From assembly GCA_018263365.1 (NCBI GenBank), contig JAANXI010000175.1, positions 1 through 32,751 on the forward strand: DNA of 32,751 bases, in the 5' to 3' direction. Below, piece by piece: positions 2,888-32,565 of the stretch; the stretch's first letter is position 1, and every line of letters starts with the position of its first letter. Under the pieces are notes generated by a model that did not search any database, was not told the DNA's origin, and saw only the letters and a list, made by a program, of their open reading frames with translations. Source of the DNA: Fidelibacterota bacterium (lineage in GTDB: Bacteria; Fidelibacterota; JAANXI01). The position numbers were made by a program, and so were the translations under genes.

Positions 2888-2940
2888 TTGACATCCTTAA
2901 ATTCGTAGTGTATAATTGTGGGTAATAGTGGGTAATTGTC
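2888..2940 (+). promoter_or_regulatory. sigma70 promoter of the dcw operon overlapped by MraZ-binding repeats
   Basis: TTGACA (2888-2893), 17-nt spacer, TATAAT (2911-2916). 10-bp-periodic repeats GTGTATAATT/GTGGGTAATA/GTGGGTAATT at 2908, 2918 and 2928 match known MraZ GTGG/TGGG boxes. Confidence 0.88.
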
Positions 2941-2966
2941 CCAACCACTAATCCGAGAAGAGCAAA

Positions 2967-16521: not shown

Positions 16522-16624
16522 GGGTGAAGGTTTATGAGAGGTGTTGGGTATAGGGTAAAAAGGTATAAGGAAAACGGAAGTGGGAGGTTGGAAGCTGTAA
16601 CACTACATCACGGAAACGGCTTTT

Positions 16625-16660
16625 TACCTGACCACGTGAATACTCGAACACCTGAACACT
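16625..16660 (+). repeat. degenerate octamer tandem array (TACCTGAC CACGTGAA TACTCGAA CACCTGAA CACT)
   Basis: 8-nt periodicity read directly; same family as 20317-20364, 27211-27258 and 31839-31886. Confidence 0.6.
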
Positions 16661-16742
16661 GTGTTAACCAATATGCGCTGGGCCATGTGATACAGGCTAA
16701 AAGATTTAGAGAGAATATCAGACAGTACATCAGGATTCAATT

Positions 16743-19882: not shown

Positions 19883-19914
19883 ATACAAATATGTCGCCTC
19901 CGTAAGGCTCACTG
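19883..19914 (-). repeat. dispersed REP-like repeat, homologous to 32018-32049
   Basis: Reverse complement CAGTGAGCCTTACGGAGGCGACATATTTGTAT versus CAGTGAGCCCTGTCGGGGCAACACATTTATAG: 23/32 identical, ungapped. Confidence 0.6.
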
Positions 19915-20023
19915 CTGAAATTTTGGGTTATTTTTTTTGAGAACTGATAACTATTCACTGTCGACTGAGTATCGTCTCACAACTGAGGTCTCAGGTTTTA
20001 CTACTCATGCAATTTTTTACTAG

Positions 20024-20221
20024 CCTGAATGATTCATTAAATAGCAGCATATTTTTGGGGAATCCAATAGAACAAATATTTAGTGGGCTATTCCGAGCCA
20101 GAGCAAGCACTGGAAATGTTCCAAGTAGAGACGTTCCATGGAACGTCTCTACATAACTATAAATATTGATCTTAGCACGCCTAAAATGCGCGCATTTATT
20201 TCGATTTATGAATTATTCGGG
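20024..20221. mobile_element. 198-bp MITE-like element with IS1380-type TIRs and an internal GTAG REP palindrome
   Basis: Left end CCTGAATGATTCATTAA, right end TTTATGAATTATTCGGG, TAG on both flanks. Perfect palindrome GTAGAGACGTTCCATGGAACGTCTCTAC at 20125-20152. Confidence 0.72.
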
Positions 20222-20316
20222 TAGTAACTCATTCTCCAAAATTTCTAATAACCATAACGCAATAACACCAGAATACGTGAGTAAGATTAAGAGTACGATT
20301 ATGATTAGGACATGTA

Positions 20317-20364
20317 AACTCGAATACTCTAACACCCGAACACTTTAACACTATAACACTCCAT
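20317..20364 (+). repeat. octamer tandem array (AACTCGAA TACTCTAA CACCCGAA CACTTTAA CACTATAA CACTCCAT)
   Basis: Six degenerate 8-nt units, preceded by a hexamer run (AGTAAG ATTAAG AGTACG ATTATG ATTAGG, ~20280-20309). Confidence 0.7.
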
Positions 20365-20411: not shown

Positions 20412-21428
20412 ATGAAAATTGGTCCATTAGATATACCAAGCCGGGTTCTCCTGGCACCGATGGCTGGCGTCACGGATCATATTTACCGGGTGATCTGTAG
20501 GGAGTTCAGCGCGGGACTCGTTTATACGGAATTCGTCAGTTCCAACGGGATCATCCGGGAGAACGAGCGGACGCTGGAGATGCTCCACTTTGAGGAGCGG
20601 GAGCGTCCAATCGGCATCCAGATTTTTGGCGATGATGCGGATATTCTGGCGGAGAGCGCCGCATACCTTACCGAGTCACTAGAGCCGGACCTTATCGACC
20701 TGAATTTCGGCTGCCCGGTACCGAAGGTGACCAAAAAAGGGGCGGGATCGGCTATTCTGAAGGATCAGGGAAAGGTCGGCGAGGTCTGCGAAAAAGTCGT
20801 GAATGCGGTGGATATCCCCGTGACAGTGAAAATGCGCAGCGGCTGGTCTGACAAAGAGATCGTGGCGCCGGAGTATGCGCAGCTCATGGAATCGCTGGGA
20901 ATTGCTGCGGTGACAGTCCACGGCCGCACCACGCAGATCCGGTATGAAAAGCCGTCAGATAACACGGTGATTGCGGCAACGAAGGAAGCCGTGGATATTC
21001 CGGTTATCGGTAACGGTGACATTCTGCAACCGGAAGATGGGCGAAGAATGATCGACGAAACCGGCTGCGACGGTGTGATGATTGCCCGTGGCGCCCTGGG
21101 CAATCCGTGGATACTGCATCGCACCAATCATTATCTGGAAACCGGCGAACTATTGCCTGAACCTGACTATGCCGACCGGCTGAACTTATGTTTCCGACAT
21201 CTCCAGCTGAAGGAAGAAGAAAAGGATTCGACGCTTGCGGCCATGTTGATGAAAAAGAACATCGGCTGGTATCTCAAAGGGATGCCGAATGCGTCGACAA
21301 TGCGCCAACTCATTAATACCAGTGATGAGTCTCAGGAGATGTATGAAATACTGCGTGACTATGCGAAGGAACTCAATGTTAAGTTAACGGCAGAAGAACC
21401 GGCGCTCTCCTACCAAAAAAGCGTCTGA
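20412..21428 (+). CDS. dusB: tRNA-dihydrouridine synthase DusB
   Basis: LAPMAGVTD, TEFVS, QIFG, IDLNFGCP, VHGRT, VIGNGDI, DGVMIARGALGNPW. Confidence 0.95.
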   Translation: MKIGPLDIPSRVLLAPMAGVTDHIYRVICREFSAGLVYTEFVSSNGIIRENERTLEMLHFEERERPIGIQIFGDDADILAESAAYLTESLEPDLIDLNFGCPVPKVTKKGAGSAILKDQGKVGEVCEKVVNAVDIPVTVKMRSGWSDKEIVAPEYAQLMESLGIAAVTVHGRTTQIRYEKPSDNTVIAATKEAVDIPVIGNGDILQPEDGRRMIDETGCDGVMIARGALGNPWILHRTNHYLETGELLPEPDYADRLNLCFRHLQLKEEEKDSTLAAMLMKKNIGWYLKGMPNASTMRQLINTSDESQEMYEILRDYAKELNVKLTAEEPALSYQKSV

Positions 21429-22613: not shown

Positions 22614-22697
22614 GGAGGTGTAGCCCTAACTGGTAAGGCAGCGGTCTTGAAAACCGCCGGGTTCACGCCCTTGGGGGTTCGAATCCCTCCACCTCCG
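22614..22697 (+). tRNA. tRNA-Ser (anticodon UGA), CCA not encoded
   Basis: Acceptor stem GGAGGTG/CACCTCC with G discriminator, anticodon arm GCGGT-CTTGAAA-ACCGC, long variable arm, T-loop GTTCGAATC. Upstream TTGGAT-17 nt-TATATT (22574-22602). Confidence 0.97.
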
Positions 22698-22866: not shown

Positions 22867-23187
22867 CCTGAATAATTCATAAACTCAGGAAAAAAGAGTT
22901 CCAATAGTGGTTGTAAAATGTTAAATTACAGTAAGTTAAAAACACATAAACATTCACAACCACTCAGGAACTCTCTTATGAATAATGTACCAGCTATTCC
23001 CGGTAAAAACCAGACCGAATTCCCATTGGAAGTCACCGCCGTGGAAGGCACTCCGGTTTTCATCGATGCGCAAGGAGGCGACCTCACCTCGGATGCGGGC
23101 GTGCTCCTGCTCCGGGAGACCGAAGCCCACGTCGGGATCATTGCGACGTTGACCGATTGTCTGCCCGATCCGCGGCATCCGTCGTTG
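22867..23187 (+). mobile_element. IS1380-family relic: left TIR and 5' fragment of transposase
   Basis: TIR CCTGAATAATTCATAAA at 22867. N-terminal motif GGDLTSDAGVLLLRE…LTDCLPDPR is typical of IS1380 transposases; similarity ends after DPRHPS. Confidence 0.8.
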
Positions 23188-23485
23188 CATTTGCTTGGGC
23201 CGGCTGCCTTCCTCCGAATAGAGCACCGCAAAGACGTCCTCCGGAATGCGGCGGAAGATCAGCTGGTAGAACTGATATGCGTCCGAGTCCTCCAGCTGCT
23301 GCCGCTTCCGGTCGCTCAAATGCGGGCCATAGCCGAACGCCTCGGTTTGGGTGGGCGATTGGTTGGGTTTGAACAGGGGGATCCCACGAGGTTAATCGTT
23401 GGTAAACTCCTGATATTATTAGAGATAATGTACCAAATTCCCCGGAGAATTCCTATGAAAAATCGGGACTTTTTAGACTGCACTC
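23188..23485 (-). pseudogene. 5' fragment of a second, oppositely oriented transposase (IS1182/IS5-like, family uncertain)
   Basis: Minus frame from CTG at 23376 reads LFKPNQ…LSDRKRQQLEDSDAYQFYQLIFRRIPEDVFAVLYSEEGSRP, resembling transposase N-termini of the form F..I.E..FA.LYS..GSRP. Possible IS end GAGTGCAGTCTAAAAAGTC from 23485. Confidence 0.55.
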
Positions 23486-23497
23486 ATGTCTTTAAAA

Positions 23498-23696
23498 CCT
23501 GATAATTCATAAACCGGGTTTATTCTGATGATAAGACCAAATGTAACTTATGGAATAACACGTGCTTGTAGAGACACGCCATGGAGGGTCTCTACCCAAC
23601 GATATTGTGGACGGTTATACTCCACAACTTGCACCTCCAAACCCCGCCGGAACATGGATGGTATGATCCGGAAATCGCATTCATGAATTATTCAGG
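23498..23696. mobile_element. 199-bp MITE-like element with IS1380-type TIRs and an internal GTAG REP palindrome
   Basis: Left end CCTGA-TAATTCATAAA, right end ATGAATTATTCAGG, AAAA on both flanks. GTAGAGACACGCCATGGAGGGTCTCTAC at 23568-23595. Confidence 0.7.
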
Positions 23697-24926: not shown

Positions 24927-25191
24927 GTAGAGCATGGAGGGAATGAAATTTCGAACGTCCTCGATTTAGTAGAGACGTTCCATGGAGAGTGTGTGAAAAC
25001 AGAAAAACAAGGGAAAAATTGTGAGTAATCATCGTATTTTCTTCCGAGTAGAGACGTGCCATGGCACGTCTCTACATTCAATAATATCAATGGGTTATCA
25101 CATAATTTATGCTGTGTGGTGTTTAGGAACGCCCGGAGGAAAAAATGTCTTGACTCGGTATTCTCACACACCCTCCATGGAACATCTCTAC
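24927..25191. repeat. cluster of GTAG-type REP sequences forming a nested inverted repeat (REPIN/BIME-like)
   Basis: Arms 24969-24999 and 25161-25191 are 28/31 complementary. Perfect 28-bp palindrome at 25048-25075; degenerate copy at 24927. Confidence 0.85.
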
Positions 25192-27199: not shown

Positions 27200-27210
27200 A
27201 GTTTCAGCTC

Positions 27211-27430
27211 AGTGTTATTGTGTTAAGGTGTTAAGGTGTTAGCGGGTTAAAGTTGAAATCTGTCATCGGTCGTGAGTCCTCAGTCCTGTGTCGTGTTGTT
27301 ATCATCAGTGATTTCGGTGTTTTTCAGTGTTTAATCTGCTTTTTCTTTGCGTTTTCTTCGCGTCCTTAGCGGCTTAGCGGTAACATTTTTTATCCGTGCT
27401 AATCTTTTGTTTCCGTGTTAATCCGTGTTC
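27211..27430. repeat. patchwork of short tandem micro-arrays filling the rnfA-rnfB spacer
   Basis: 8-mers (27211-27258), 7-mers GTCNTNN (27262-27296), 9/10-mers TCAGTG (27304-27338), CTTNGCG units (27345-27383), TCCGTGTT 10-mers (27392-27430). Confidence 0.7.
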
Positions 27431-27444
27431 CATGCGTTTTTTTT

Positions 27445-30379: not shown

Positions 30380-31708
30380 TTATGCTGCCTGCTTGTTTCG
30401 GGATTCATTCACGCGGTATTTGCCGACGCGTATCCATTGCACTAATGGGATGTATGATGGACACACAAACGCGCATGATCCGCACTCCACGCAGCTGTCA
30501 ATTCCGTAGTCTTCCATGGCGTCTATCTGCTTGTTTTCTGAGAATTTGGCTAATCGAGTCGATACTAAATTCATCGGACAGGCGTCCACACATGCACCAC
30601 ACTGGATGCACGGATAGGACTGCATTTTTTTTACGCGGGACTCCGTGCTGCAAATAATGCCGCTGGATGCCTTGATCACCGGTACCGACAAATCATGCAG
30701 CGCCATGCCCATCATCGGTCCGCCCATAAAAACCTGAGCCGTCTCTTCCGATAATCCGCCGGCGAAATCTACCAGTGATTGGAGAGGCGTGCCGATCCGT
30801 GCCAATACGTTTTTCGGTTCGGAGATGCCGTCACCGGTAATCGTCACGACCCGCTGCACGAGCGGCTTGCCTTCGGTGACGGCTTCCGCCACAGCCATGG
30901 CCGTCCCCACATTATTTACAACTGTGCCCACATCCATGGGAAGGCCGCCGGTGGGGACTTTGCGGTCCAGCACCGACATAATAAGCATCTTCTCCGCACC
31001 CTGCGGATATTTGGTCTCCAGCGCCATCACCTTGAAATCTAAATTCAGATTCTGCACCCGCTCATTCATGGCTTCCACGGCGTCCGGCTTGTTATCCTCG
31101 ATGCCGATGTAGCCATTCTCCACACCGAGCACCTTCATTATTATGGACATCCCGGTGAGGATTTTATCGGTCATCTCCACCATGGCACGGTGGTCCGAGG
31201 TGAGGTACGGCTCGCATTCGCAGCCGTTCAGGATGAACGAGTCGATGGGTTTCTCCTCCGGCGGCGCCAGTTTGACGTGCGTCGGAAATGCTGCGCCTCC
31301 GAGCCCAACGATGCCGGCGTCCCAGACGAGTTGCCGCAGGTCATCAATGGAGGCTGATTCCCAATCCTCCGGATGCTTTAGCAGTTCCCAATCATCCTCT
31401 CCGGTGCGCTGAATCTGTATCATTTTGACTTTCGATCCCATGGGATGCAAAAAGTTGTTGATCTTCTTCACCTTGCCGGTCACCGGCGAGTGCACGGGGC
31501 TCGACACATACTTATCACTCCGTCCGATGACCTGACCGGTCTTCACCTCATCCTTCCGATCCACGATCGGTTCGTCCGGCGCGCCGATGTGCTGCTGCAC
31601 GGGTATGAAAACCTCATTAGGCAACGGCATAAACTCGATGGACTTGGTGTTTGTGAACTCTTTATGGTCCGACGGATGAATGCCTTTGCTAAAAGTTGGA
31701 AACTTCAC
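30380..31708 (-). CDS. rnfC: Rnf complex subunit C
   Basis: QQHIGAP, AGIVGLGGAAFPT, NGCECEPYLTSD, YPQGAEK, GGPMMG, CIQCGACVDACP, CVECGSCAFVCP; GTG start. Confidence 0.96.
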   Translation of the reverse strand: MKFPTFSKGIHPSDHKEFTNTKSIEFMPLPNEVFIPVQQHIGAPDEPIVDRKDEVKTGQVIGRSDKYVSSPVHSPVTGKVKKINNFLHPMGSKVKMIQIQRTGEDDWELLKHPEDWESASIDDLRQLVWDAGIVGLGGAAFPTHVKLAPPEEKPIDSFILNGCECEPYLTSDHRAMVEMTDKILTGMSIIMKVLGVENGYIGIEDNKPDAVEAMNERVQNLNLDFKVMALETKYPQGAEKMLIMSVLDRKVPTGGLPMDVGTVVNNVGTAMAVAEAVTEGKPLVQRVVTITGDGISEPKNVLARIGTPLQSLVDFAGGLSEETAQVFMGGPMMGMALHDLSVPVIKASSGIICSTESRVKKMQSYPCIQCGACVDACPMNLVSTRLAKFSENKQIDAMEDYGIDSCVECGSCAFVCPSYIPLVQWIRVGKYRVNESRNKQAA

Positions 31709-31838
31709 CGGCTGTATTCCTCGTCTGTATTTTTATTTTCCCAATTCCAAGAATGCAAAACTCTGAAACCCTTTGTTCCCATAGATGAGTTCATTAGTCC
31801 CATTTTCCTGTTTCAAATTGTATGCCATCCGTAAAGAC

Positions 31839-31979
31839 AGTGTTATAGTGTTCATGTGTTTAAGTGTTCAAGTGTTCAAGTTGCAAGAATCCACCGGTGA
31901 GGGATCCATGGCAGAAAGATGCGAGACGTCAGACGTGAGACAAAATGTCTCCAGTTGGCAGTAAACAGTCGGCAATTAC
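31839..31979. repeat. octamer array plus two heptamer arrays upstream of rnfC
   Basis: AGTGTTAT AGTGTTCA TGTGTTTA AGTGTTCA AGTGTTCA AGTTGCAA (31839-31886); AGATGCG AGACGTC AGACGTG AGACA (31917-31942); CAGTTGG CAGTAAA CAGTCGG CAATTAC (31952-31979). Confidence 0.75.
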
Positions 31980-32017
31980 CAAAAGCATTTTAAATTCGAA
32001 TTAGGTGCAAGAGAATT

Positions 32018-32095
32018 CAGTGAGCCCTGTCGGGGCAACACATTTATAGTGCAGTATACCGAAACTACTTAGAAGCCTCGTAGCGGCGTTATATC
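32018..32095 (+). repeat. two degenerate REP-like direct repeats
   Basis: AGCCCTGTCGGGGCAACACAT and AGCCTCGTAGCGGCGTTATAT; the first matches 19883-19914 in reverse. Confidence 0.5.
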
Positions 32096-32145: not shown

Positions 32146-32318
32146 TTCTATGCGCTACCTAGCGTTCGTTGCGGTAAAAAATTACATTTTTTGTTTTCTC
32201 TTTGTTTTTGGCTCTTTCCTGATTCCCGTTGTTCTTTGCGTCTTGGCGTCTTTGCGGTTCATATCTTTTGCTTATTTCCGCTTTTTTTCTCTGGGTTCTC
32301 AGCGCCCTCAGCGGTGAA
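32146..32318. repeat. three short CTNNGCG-unit arrays, each ending in GCGGT
   Basis: 32146-32177, 32232-32259 and 32288-32318; same pattern as 27345-27383. Confidence 0.6.
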
Positions 32319-32363: not shown

Positions 32364-32385
32364 TCCATCACTATTTGACAACAGA

Positions 32386-32565
32386 GAAATGGCCAAGGGA
32401 AGCCCGCGAAAATCGGGCACAGCCCCGCTACTGTGATCGGTGACGACCAGTGCGTGAACCACTGTCCCCCAATTTCGGGACGGGAAGGTGCACCGGAAGG
32501 ATGAGCCGTCAGTCAGGAGACCTGCCATTTCCGAACCAGCAACTCCAAACCTTCGAGGGCAAGGT
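32386..32565 (+). ncRNA. cobalamin riboswitch (long, class I type)
   Basis: AAGGGAA, P4 GCCCG-CGAAAAT-CGGGC, CCCCGCTACTGT, CCACTG…GGGAAG, B12 box AGTCAGGAGACCTGCC, P1 GAAATGGC/GCCATTTC, downstream hairpin ACCTT-CGAGGGC-AAGGT. The regulated gene is mostly or wholly outside the window. Confidence 0.95.

Follow-up and report, generated by a model that had tools for sequence, protein, structure and literature searches.

The 32,751-nt contig JAANXI010000175.1, analysed here in full (the window), is contig C85 of a 178-contig, 1.94-Mb Fidelibacterota metagenome-assembled genome (MAG) with 88.6% completeness, and carries ordered stacks of short repeat modules upstream of rnfC and dusB. These two regions are probably copies of a mosaic dispersed through the genome and amplified in the genus, similar to bacterial interspersed mosaic elements (BIMEs) and short tandemly repeated repetitive (STRR) sequences and built partly from solitary arms of gene cassettes. 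The pieces would comprise repetitive extragenic palindromic (REP) hairpins of the kind moved by REP-associated tyrosine transposases (RAYTs; Y1 transposases), a palindromic element resembling a MITE (miniature inverted-repeat transposable element), and solitary arms, i.e. 25–45-nt blocks of 3–5 degenerate tandem units of 6–9 nt, of the same types as the inverted pairs flanking PF05635 and PF13366 cassette genes, two families that are small and probably selfish. The module order common to the two genes would have two causes: common descent of a dispersed ~140–190-nt REP-like/ACTG/GTCT segment, and a positional rule placing the AACAC arm outermost, with its tail (TGYnnTTA) against the start or stop of an open reading frame (orf).

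A diverged composite repeat upstream of rnfC and dusB

Read toward rnfC (minus strand), the stack includes a REP-like unit (32,018–32,049; palindrome GCCCCGACAGGGC at 32,024–32,036, without the GTAG of the hairpin REPs described below), ACTG heptamers of TAACTGA type (31,952–31,979), GTCTC heptamers (GTCTCAC GTCTGAC GTCTCGC; 31,917–31,942), a non-repetitive linker (ACCGGTGGATTCTTGCAAC; 31,880–31,898) with exact 19-nt identity to contig C1 at 15,700, and an AACAC octamer arm pointing to the gene (31,840–31,886; five exact units and one degenerate, Tandem Repeats Finder (TRF) period 8, position-specific units from TTGAACAC to TATAACAC), which ends in the tail TGTCTTTA (31,832–31,839; family consensus TGYnnTTA). 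This stack reaches ~32,316, beyond the extent first described, and includes further upstream an octamer arm of a type seen to the left of GxxExxY genes (AACCGCAAAGACGCCAAGACGCAAAGAAC; 32,231–32,259, TRF 32,233–32,256) and a 5′ terminal arm of GCAGAG type (CACCGCTGAGGGCGCTGAGAACCCAGAG; 32,289–32,316), both on the minus strand. Toward dusB (plus strand), a homologue of the REP-like unit (19,883–19,914) is followed by ACTG heptamers (19,942–19,969), two GTCTCA heptamers with an ACTG unit in between (19,973–19,993), a MITE-like dispersed repeat (20,016–20,217) whose core is a 28-nt perfect palindrome (GTAGAGACGTTCCATGGAACGTCTCTAC; 20,125–20,152), degenerate TAACAC-type octamers (20,250–20,277), RATTAR hexamers (20,279–20,307, identified by TRF) and an AACAC octamer arm pointing to the gene (20,317–20,364; exact units 20,331–20,359). 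Every module of a preliminary description of these two regions was recovered at its place, and the 23/32 identity reported between the two REP-like units is exact. The 9-mer GGCTCACTG is not repeated across the genome, occurring 17 times against ~15 expected, only three of them intergenic; a looser REP-like family (CAAATATGYCGCC..GGGRCTC) is present.

Local alignment, assessed against shuffled sequences and viewed with MAFFT, showed rnfC (minus strand) and dusB (plus strand) to be colinear over a stretch that starts with the REP-like unit and takes in both the ACTG and the GTCT heptamers (87/125 identical; score 56, shuffles 20.5 ± 3.5, maximum 34). A third copy lies at the start of contig C100 and matches the rnfC segment at 120/166 positions (score 86, shuffle maximum 41) and dusB at 73/101 (score 39, shuffle maximum 33). 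Module order in this copy (REP-like, ACTG, GTCTC, GGAC, TAACAC, RATTAR, GAACAC, stop codon) is that of dusB minus the MITE. The linkers, thought not to align, thus belong to a diverged segment of ~140 nt that aligns across all three regions, and because of this colinearity three of the four modules (REP-like, ACTG and GTCT) represent one diverged composite repeat; the order common to rnfC and dusB therefore appears to result mainly from common descent. The four-module order seen at both genes is real. It can be explained without four module types having inserted independently and in order; end-to-end alignment of the two regions, which had been named as a finding that would overturn a modular reading, holds for three of the four modules.

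Two further stacks in the window, giving four in total (upstream of ftsA, dusB, rnfB and rnfC), lie upstream of rnfB (27,200–27,444, minus strand; a GCGAAG/GCAAAG arm, an ACACYGAA arm and GGAC heptamers, then an AACAC arm at 27,212–27,240) and, in degenerate form, between ftsQ and ftsA (16,522–16,742, plus strand; arm ..GAATACTCGAACACCTGAACACTGTGTTA at 16,629–16,667). A search of the rnfC, dusB and rnfB stacks found no inverted partner arm inside any of the three.

AACAC arrays lie at orf boundaries

Among 656 TRF rows for the genome, 87 have period 7 and 139 period 8, and AACAC dominates the period-8 consensus units. When 4-mers repeated three times at a fixed period were counted, ACAC/AACA at period 8 was far ahead of the rest (69 on one strand and 57 on the other), with ACTG at period 7 the runner-up among cores outside the AACAC unit. 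Defined as at least three exact AACAC at 8-nt spacing, 79 arrays were found, all outside orf calls (none in coding sequence), and none in the reversed genome used as control. Most (70/79) have 3–4 units, which are position-specific (first TTGAACAC, middle nnGAACAC, last TMTAACAC, then the tail), so that AACAC arrays are conserved ~45-nt sequences with internal periodicity and not free-running microsatellites.

In 65/70 cases an array has its 3′ end closer than its 5′ end to an orf boundary (median 14.5 nt, vs 238 nt), with 45 arrays pointing toward a start and 33 toward a stop, and an identical tail consensus in both sets. Of the stop-pointing arrays, 28/33 end at most 9 nt from the stop; a stop codon past the array is readable in 26 of these (17 TAA, 7 TGA, 2 TAG), and in the remaining two the orf enters the array by 1 nt. 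Between co-directional genes, 36 arrays are in sense and 15 in antisense orientation. Replacement of the Shine-Dalgarno site by arrays was considered and rejected, since a Shine-Dalgarno sequence was found at 9/19 starts preceded by arrays vs 47% genome-wide, with start calls uncertain. Pairing of arrays around one gene (5′ AACAC and 3′ GTGTT) as a general rule was also discarded (2 genes vs ~0.8 expected).

Contigs C49, C99, C100, C152 and others of this genome start or end in or beside an array or stack, and Logan metagenome contigs also break at such places. Repeats of this kind probably fragment short-read assemblies of the lineage, and can create false orfs. One such case is probably the 129-aa orf at 31,445–31,834 (plus strand), antisense to the start of rnfC, which has no Pfam match, overlaps the RnfC_N region and terminates in the TAA of the arm tail.

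Module order and polarity across the genome

Ten module types were each defined by a motif and a period. Within the same intergenic region, modules generally lie upstream of AACAC on the same strand (RATTAR 16/16, GGAC 16/17, GCARAG 10/11, ACACYGAA 6/6, ACTG 5/6, GTCTC 5/7), and module pairs are on the same strand in 102 cases vs 18 on opposite strands. The best single linear order fits 93/99 pairs, compared with 67.5 ± 3.2 (maximum 76) in 200 within-region shuffles, the comparison that the preliminary description had proposed as a check. Without AACAC, 38/44 pairs fit, vs a shuffled best of 32.8 ± 2.2 (maximum 38), making the order among the other modules weakly non-random and suggestive only; ACTG precedes GTCTC in 2/2 cases. 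As the bulk of the signal comes from AACAC being last, the robust rule is ‘AACAC last, same strand’. The common long stack, read toward the gene, consists of GCAGAG/GCAAAG octamers, ACACYGAA units, ACACGAAG units, AACAACG heptamers, optional RATTAR hexamers, a hairpin plus ACTACCAAC, GGAC heptamers, TAACAC octamers, GAACAC octamers and the tail. Polarity was also seen in the sister genome (G001; the MAG holding the window is G000), where, among 58 array loci, these modules mostly lie upstream on the same strand (GGAC 17/18, RATTAR 17/21, GCARAG 8/8, ACACYGAA 4/4).

Microsatellite-like slippage in AT-rich spacers, with the likeness of rnfC and dusB due to chance, is highly improbable. Unit number is polymorphic, as a contig from another study (X5) is identical over 31,557–31,942 except for an additional 16 nt (two units) in the rnfC array, behind 31,861, and some bacteria have many heptamer and octamer repeats (Mrazek 2007, cited by the sections of PMC4679880 consulted). 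Against slippage stand the position-specific units and conserved linkers, strand and order statistics above controls, the colinear alignments of rnfC, dusB and C100, and the backwards pattern, which has no match in G000 or G001; the reversed, backwards and shuffle controls rule out its plain form. The early judgement that the stacks are not random slippage is borne out, as polarity and terminal AACAC hold genome-wide and again in G001.

Stack modules match the inverted arms of two families of cassette genes

G000 has three genes for four-helix-bundle proteins (TIGR02436; PF05635, the 23S rRNA intervening sequence (IVS) protein, with a weak match to Avd), one of them frameshifted, and four GxxExxY genes (TIGR04256 = PF13366, PD-(D/E)XK nuclease family). 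By eye, inverted arrays of 7–9-nt tandem units flank 10/10 four-helix-bundle loci inspected (three in G000, one in G001 and six in other Marinimicrobia genomes), and inverted arrays of 7–9-nt units flank 10/10 GxxExxY loci of G000 and G001. A strict arm score, which undercounts arms differing in spacer letters, exceeds the 99th percentile of 347 control genes at 9/22 four-helix-bundle and 21/37 GxxExxY loci (38 taken, one dropped for a short flank), with medians of 26 and 29, respectively, vs 16 for controls. Cassette genes flanked by arms span G000, G001 and 36 other Marinimicrobia genomes, and many GxxExxY arms across the phylum have common termini (AACC..GGTT) and RCNRAK units. Genes of these two families with similar flanking repeats had been mentioned in the preliminary description, correctly; the repeats form inverted arms.

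In G000, four-helix-bundle genes have arms of AACAC, GGAC and GAAACTT type, and GxxExxY genes have arms of GCAGAG, ACACYGAA, ACAGAT and GCAAAG type; on their sequences, these cassette arms are the stack modules. The predicted RNA fold of the four-helix-bundle cassette on contig C136 pairs both arms as a long stem around the orf (z −4.68; matched by 0/100 shuffles), while shuffles of the rnfC stack fold as well as the stack itself (z −0.23), with its AACAC block unpaired. A two-armed cassette could thus be enclosed in a panhandle formed by its transcript or by a single DNA strand, like 23S rRNA IVS, and RNase III-type processing may act on this panhandle. Stacks with one arm, among them those at rnfC and dusB, are unstructured and A/C-rich, and would most likely be remnants or non-autonomous derivatives that do little or nothing by themselves.

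In G036 (C66), G056 (C23), G049 (C72), G031 (C30) and G012 (C4), four-helix-bundle and GxxExxY genes lie a few kb apart in runs of 3–5 that look like cassette islands, and G022 has 44 four-helix-bundle and 32 GxxExxY matches. That AACAC abundance follows the number of four-helix-bundle matches was rejected, as G022 with its 44 has no arrays, and G000 and G001 have 4 and 5 matches.

REP hairpins and the MITE-like element

The hairpin module of the long stacks was recognised at 29/59 ACTACCARC sites, where a perfect 4–6-bp hairpin lies directly upstream. Its 22 distinct compensating stems are each followed by ACTACCAAC, i.e. GTTGGTAGT plus hairpin on the reverse strand, and the module is, judged by these features, a REP. 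The extragenic mosaic with fixed motif order is that expected of REPs and BIMEs. One G001 locus (L292) has a RAYT-like gene (Y1_Tnp match, E 6e-5) surrounded by eight REP hairpins in alternating orientation, and a second Y1 gene (L290) is flanked by GTCCCGGCAGGGAC-type REPs resembling GCCCCGACAGGGC of the window. In G000 there is one weak RAYT match, with a stop codon, and the place orthologous to that in G001 falls at contig ends. Long clusters of several REP families were also observed at L247, L098 (upstream of rnfC), L287 and L290 of G001, near three intact Y1 transposase genes.

The MITE-like element of the dusB stack gave 34 blast hits, including three long copies, at about 20 loci, with ~6-fold metagenome contig depth; this element of ~200 nt is also found at 25,040–25,100 in the window. 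Its palindrome GTAGAGACGTTCCATGGAACGTCTCTAC starts with GTAG, like the REPs, and its arm resembles the GTCTC heptamer unit.

Variation between genomes and origin of the stacks

Proteins of G001 have 86% identity to those of G000, while G002 belongs to a different genus. At rnfC, the AACAC arm is kept in place in G001 in degenerate form, next to a conserved block (TGGCATACAATTTGAA), with different modules upstream (GCAATAC heptamers and many REPs), and G002 has the block and the adjacent riboswitch synteny and no array. At dusB, the stack is missing from G001, where the neighbouring gene also differs. Orthologous intergenic regions of G000 and G001, a comparison suggested earlier, retain, rearrange or exchange their stacks. 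On C136, one stack is common to G000 and G001 with module-level indels, and in an orthologous four-helix-bundle cassette the two arms have changed in concert, from GAACAC to TAACAC type. Arrays drift as whole units are gained and lost, and stacks turn over between sister species. The mosaic would have spread in composite segments and be eroding by unit slippage and indels.

A polarised landing pad, one of two explanations offered at the outset, would have cassettes inserting in series at ordered sites by gene boundaries, each leaving one arm as a scar, so that order records insertion history. Different elements do occupy one site in different lineages: at one site G000, G001 and G002 have a GxxExxY cassette, while G003 has a two-armed mini element that lacks an orf and belongs to a different arm subfamily, and the C136 5,740–5,968 site has unrelated content in G000 and G001. 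Stack arms also match cassette arms, and the outermost arm always lies at an orf boundary. However, three of the four rnfC/dusB modules travel as one homologous segment, and 4/4 G000 GxxExxY cassettes, of the same arm family, are at the same sites in G001, which indicates that cassettes move rarely. No series of scars, empty site or duplication was seen, the order among non-AACAC modules is weakly non-random, and the left and right arm families in stacks are not mirror images, contrary to nested insertion. The landing pad is thus distinctly unlikely.

Rather unlikely, though less so, is a functional scaffold, in which the tandem blocks would be platforms for an oligomeric ssRNA- or ssDNA-binding protein, one unit per subunit, and stacks would tune translation, mRNA stability or promoter use. 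Candidates are the four-helix-bundle protein as an Avd-like pentamer, the GxxExxY nuclease and, following a proposal made for TAACTGA repeats, proteins of the S1/Csp/CsrA type. Conserved cores with variable spacer positions and the narrow range of unit number agree with such a role, as do arrays ending 4–20 nt before 19 called start codons, the sense bias, retention of the rnfC array in G001 by the conserved block, and a 107-nt part of the rnfB stack with 83% identity between species with 76% coding-DNA identity. Each of the three G000 four-helix-bundle genes lies between arms of one abundant array family, and MacGregor 2015 argued, in the sections of PMC4679880 consulted, for post-transcriptional binding sites. 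On the other side, 33/79 arrays abut stop codons in antisense, the dusB stack and rnfC array are missing from G001 and G002, respectively, neighbouring genes have no common theme, Shine-Dalgarno frequency does not differ, and array counts and four-helix-bundle gene counts are uncorrelated.

Several observations weigh against a dispersed mosaic of REPs and solitary arms, the reading preferred here. In long stacks, GxxExxY arms of the left type are combined with four-helix-bundle arms of the right type, which neither simple decay of one cassette nor nested insertion explains. Searches for an empty site with target duplication, an arm-linked transposase or near-identical recent copies of whole stacks found none, and movement is therefore inferred from distribution only; for cassettes found only in G001 (L249, L257), the flanks of an empty site were not found in G000. 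AACAC array counts do not track four-helix-bundle gene counts across 61 genomes. GTCTC motifs in G001 are on the same strand in one case vs six on the opposite strand, the GGAC and GTCTC definitions are noisy (43 and 10 matches in the reversed-genome control), and gene calls for G000 come from a crude orf scorer. Retention of the rnfC array beside the conserved block could point to function, as could a sense bias that extends beyond AACAC (sense:antisense between co-directional genes, GCARAG 12:2, GGAC 18:4, RATTAR 12:3). Contact of the AACAC arm with orfs, the joining of left and right arms and the sense bias are left unexplained by a dispersed mosaic and could keep a functional role alive.

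A bolder and quite tentative proposal, which we regard as doubtful, is that PF05635 and PF13366 genes define undescribed ‘tandem-repeat-armed’ mobile cassettes in Marinimicrobia, whose arms would offer one recognition unit per subunit of an oligomeric protein. Orf-less and one-armed derivatives would then have spread, creating a trans-acting network that binds, cuts or processes dozens of transcripts or DNA sites near housekeeping genes, rnfC and dusB among them.

Distribution of AACAC arrays

Four-unit AACAC arrays number 49 in G000, 143 in G001 and zero in two genomes of the same family, and 2–4 each were found in 3/57 other Marinimicrobia genomes searched; the backwards pattern gave no match across genomes except one in G051. 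In other species, five-unit arrays were seen in >122 stretches, the majority from Saprospiraceae, Rhodothermales, Cyclobacteriaceae and further Bacteroidota, and also Balneolaceae, Ignavibacteria, Caldithrix and a Dolichospermum; in 6/13 stretches inspected, a GTGTT array precedes an AACAC array between a stop and a start. AACAC arrays alone are thus seen more widely (Bacteroidota, Rhodothermota, Calditrichota, Ignavibacteria and a cyanobacterium). The exact arm-plus-tail pattern matched a single stretch, from a Bacteroidia MAG, in a search of 185,579 species genomes from which the source genome and near relatives may be left out.

Relation to known repeat systems

BIMEs and REP clusters with RAYTs occur in E. 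coli and Pseudomonas. Like these, the stacks form an extragenic mosaic of short palindromes and fixed linker motifs in defined order, and one of their modules, a GC-rich hairpin whose flank is conserved, occurs in alternating orientation around a Y1-transposase-like gene in G001. Unlike BIMEs, stacks are mostly one-stranded tandem 6–9-mers and not palindromic REPs, their order is anchored to orf boundaries, and no intact RAYT was found in G000.

The heptamers of cyanobacterial STRR sequences are comparable intergenic repeats. TAACTGA intergenic heptamer direct repeats have been described in Beggiatoaceae, Cyanobacteria and Bacteroidetes (MacGregor 2015, PMC4679880, sections consulted). Heptamers repeated in tandem around an ACTG core are seen here too (GATAACTGATTACTGTTAACTGATAACTGA on C109 is an example), and the described repeats are likewise, in those sections, intergenic, often just upstream of starts or reversed after stops, mixed with other heptamers, subject to unit-step indels and patchy in phylogenetic spread. 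The dominant unit here is instead the AACAC octamer, in short, position-specific arrays within ordered stacks, and arrays are tied to the arms of cassette genes, a link not made in the same sections of PMC4679880. The opinion that no named element has this architecture was therefore overstated, BIME/REP mosaics and the heptamer assemblages of MacGregor 2015, as far as the sections consulted describe them, being close relatives. Of 13 ACTG period-7 arrays in G000, 12 are intergenic direct heptamers of TAACTGA type; exact TAACTGATAACTGA occurs once in the genome, and the ACTG units of the window are 1–3 letters off TAACTGA. These arrays do not follow the BOGUAY pattern (forward, a few nt from the start), their median distance to the 3′-side boundary being 131 nt, with four in sense and four in antisense orientation in co-directional regions.

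23S rRNA IVS with a PF05635 orf, of the Leptospira and Coxiella type, are excised by RNase III. The cassettes share with them the same protein family, in the loop of a long stem formed by inverted flanks, and the pairing of arms predicted by folding. They differ in lying between protein-coding genes and not in rRNA, and in having stems of short tandem repeats; the rnfC and dusB stacks, one-armed and without an orf, do not have this structure.

In Foldback transposons, long inverted-repeat ends are built from sub-repeats. Long inverted repeats like those of Foldback elements, with multiple transposase-binding sites, are described in the part of PMC3688188 consulted. Ends of tandem sub-repeats with polarity from tip inward, orf-less two-armed miniatures and dispersed copies recall these elements and MITEs; the elements compared are eukaryotic, whereas the sequences analysed here showed neither a transposase nor a terminal duplication nor an excision footprint. 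Similarity to integron cassettes and attC sites lies in small promoterless genes with imperfect inverted-repeat bounds, in the same orientation as their neighbours. Here, however, arms are tandem repeats and not attC R″/L″-L′/R′, cassettes are scattered among housekeeping genes and not arrayed, and no integrase or attI turned up, although no search was aimed at either. A CRISPR array (23–50-nt repeats with unique spacers of similar length) was ruled out, the units here being 6–9 nt and abutting.

In the literature covered, no paper linking either gene family to tandem-repeat arms was found, with subscription journals and supplements outside this coverage.

Other features of the window

The nearest relatives of the window DusB are from Candidatus Neomarinimicrobiota (Marinimicrobia) MAGs (56–59% identity), and near-identical DNA is present in metagenome runs from marine, seawater and brine sources. 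Genes near the stacks comprise rnfC (30,380–31,708, minus strand; RnfC_N and Complex1_51K domains), dusB (20,412–21,428, plus strand; Dus domain), the rnf operon and a dcw (division and cell wall) cluster ending in ftsZ. The conserved block TGGCATACAATTTGAA (31,812–31,827, minus strand), present in G000, G001 and G002, is located ~100 nt ahead of the rnfC start and immediately downstream of the end of the AACAC arm. It may be a sigma-54 promoter, as it fits the −24/−12 pattern and is the only match in the window (at least one match in 18/100 shuffles); rpoN is present on C162. Scans for sigma-70 promoters and terminators in the rnfC and dusB stacks gave no more matches than shuffles; TTGACA-type promoters were noticed by eye in other stacks.

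A scan against Rfam found only a cobalamin riboswitch (32,373–32,543, plus strand; 98.8 bits) and one tRNA in the window. The orf behind the riboswitch runs off the window end and, by eye only, has a signal-peptide-like N-terminus and the look of a TonB-dependent receptor; riboswitch-rnfC synteny is retained in G001 and G002. A fragment of a DDE (IS1380-family) transposase (22,918–23,502, plus strand), with ~10-fold metagenome contig depth, adjoins the tRNA (22,614–22,697). Upstream of mraZ (2,890–2,945, plus strand), a TTGACA..TATAAT-like promoter precedes direct repeats of GTGGGTAAT spaced 10 nt apart (TRF 2,913–2,936), which presumably resemble the classical MraZ operator.

Significance

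For decades, arrays of heptamers and octamers have been observed between genes of cyanobacteria, giant sulfur bacteria and Bacteroidetes, with their source and function still lacking. Such arrays are now tied to concrete genes, as their unit types also make up the inverted arms around two families of small genes, very widespread and of unknown role. One of these families is related to Avd, the accessory protein of diversity-generating retroelements, and to the 23S rRNA IVS protein, the other is a PD-(D/E)XK nuclease, and one module of the stacks is tied to REPs and RAYTs. The link between arms and genes makes the puzzle testable, through binding or cutting of their own arms by the cassette proteins and through IVS-like processing.

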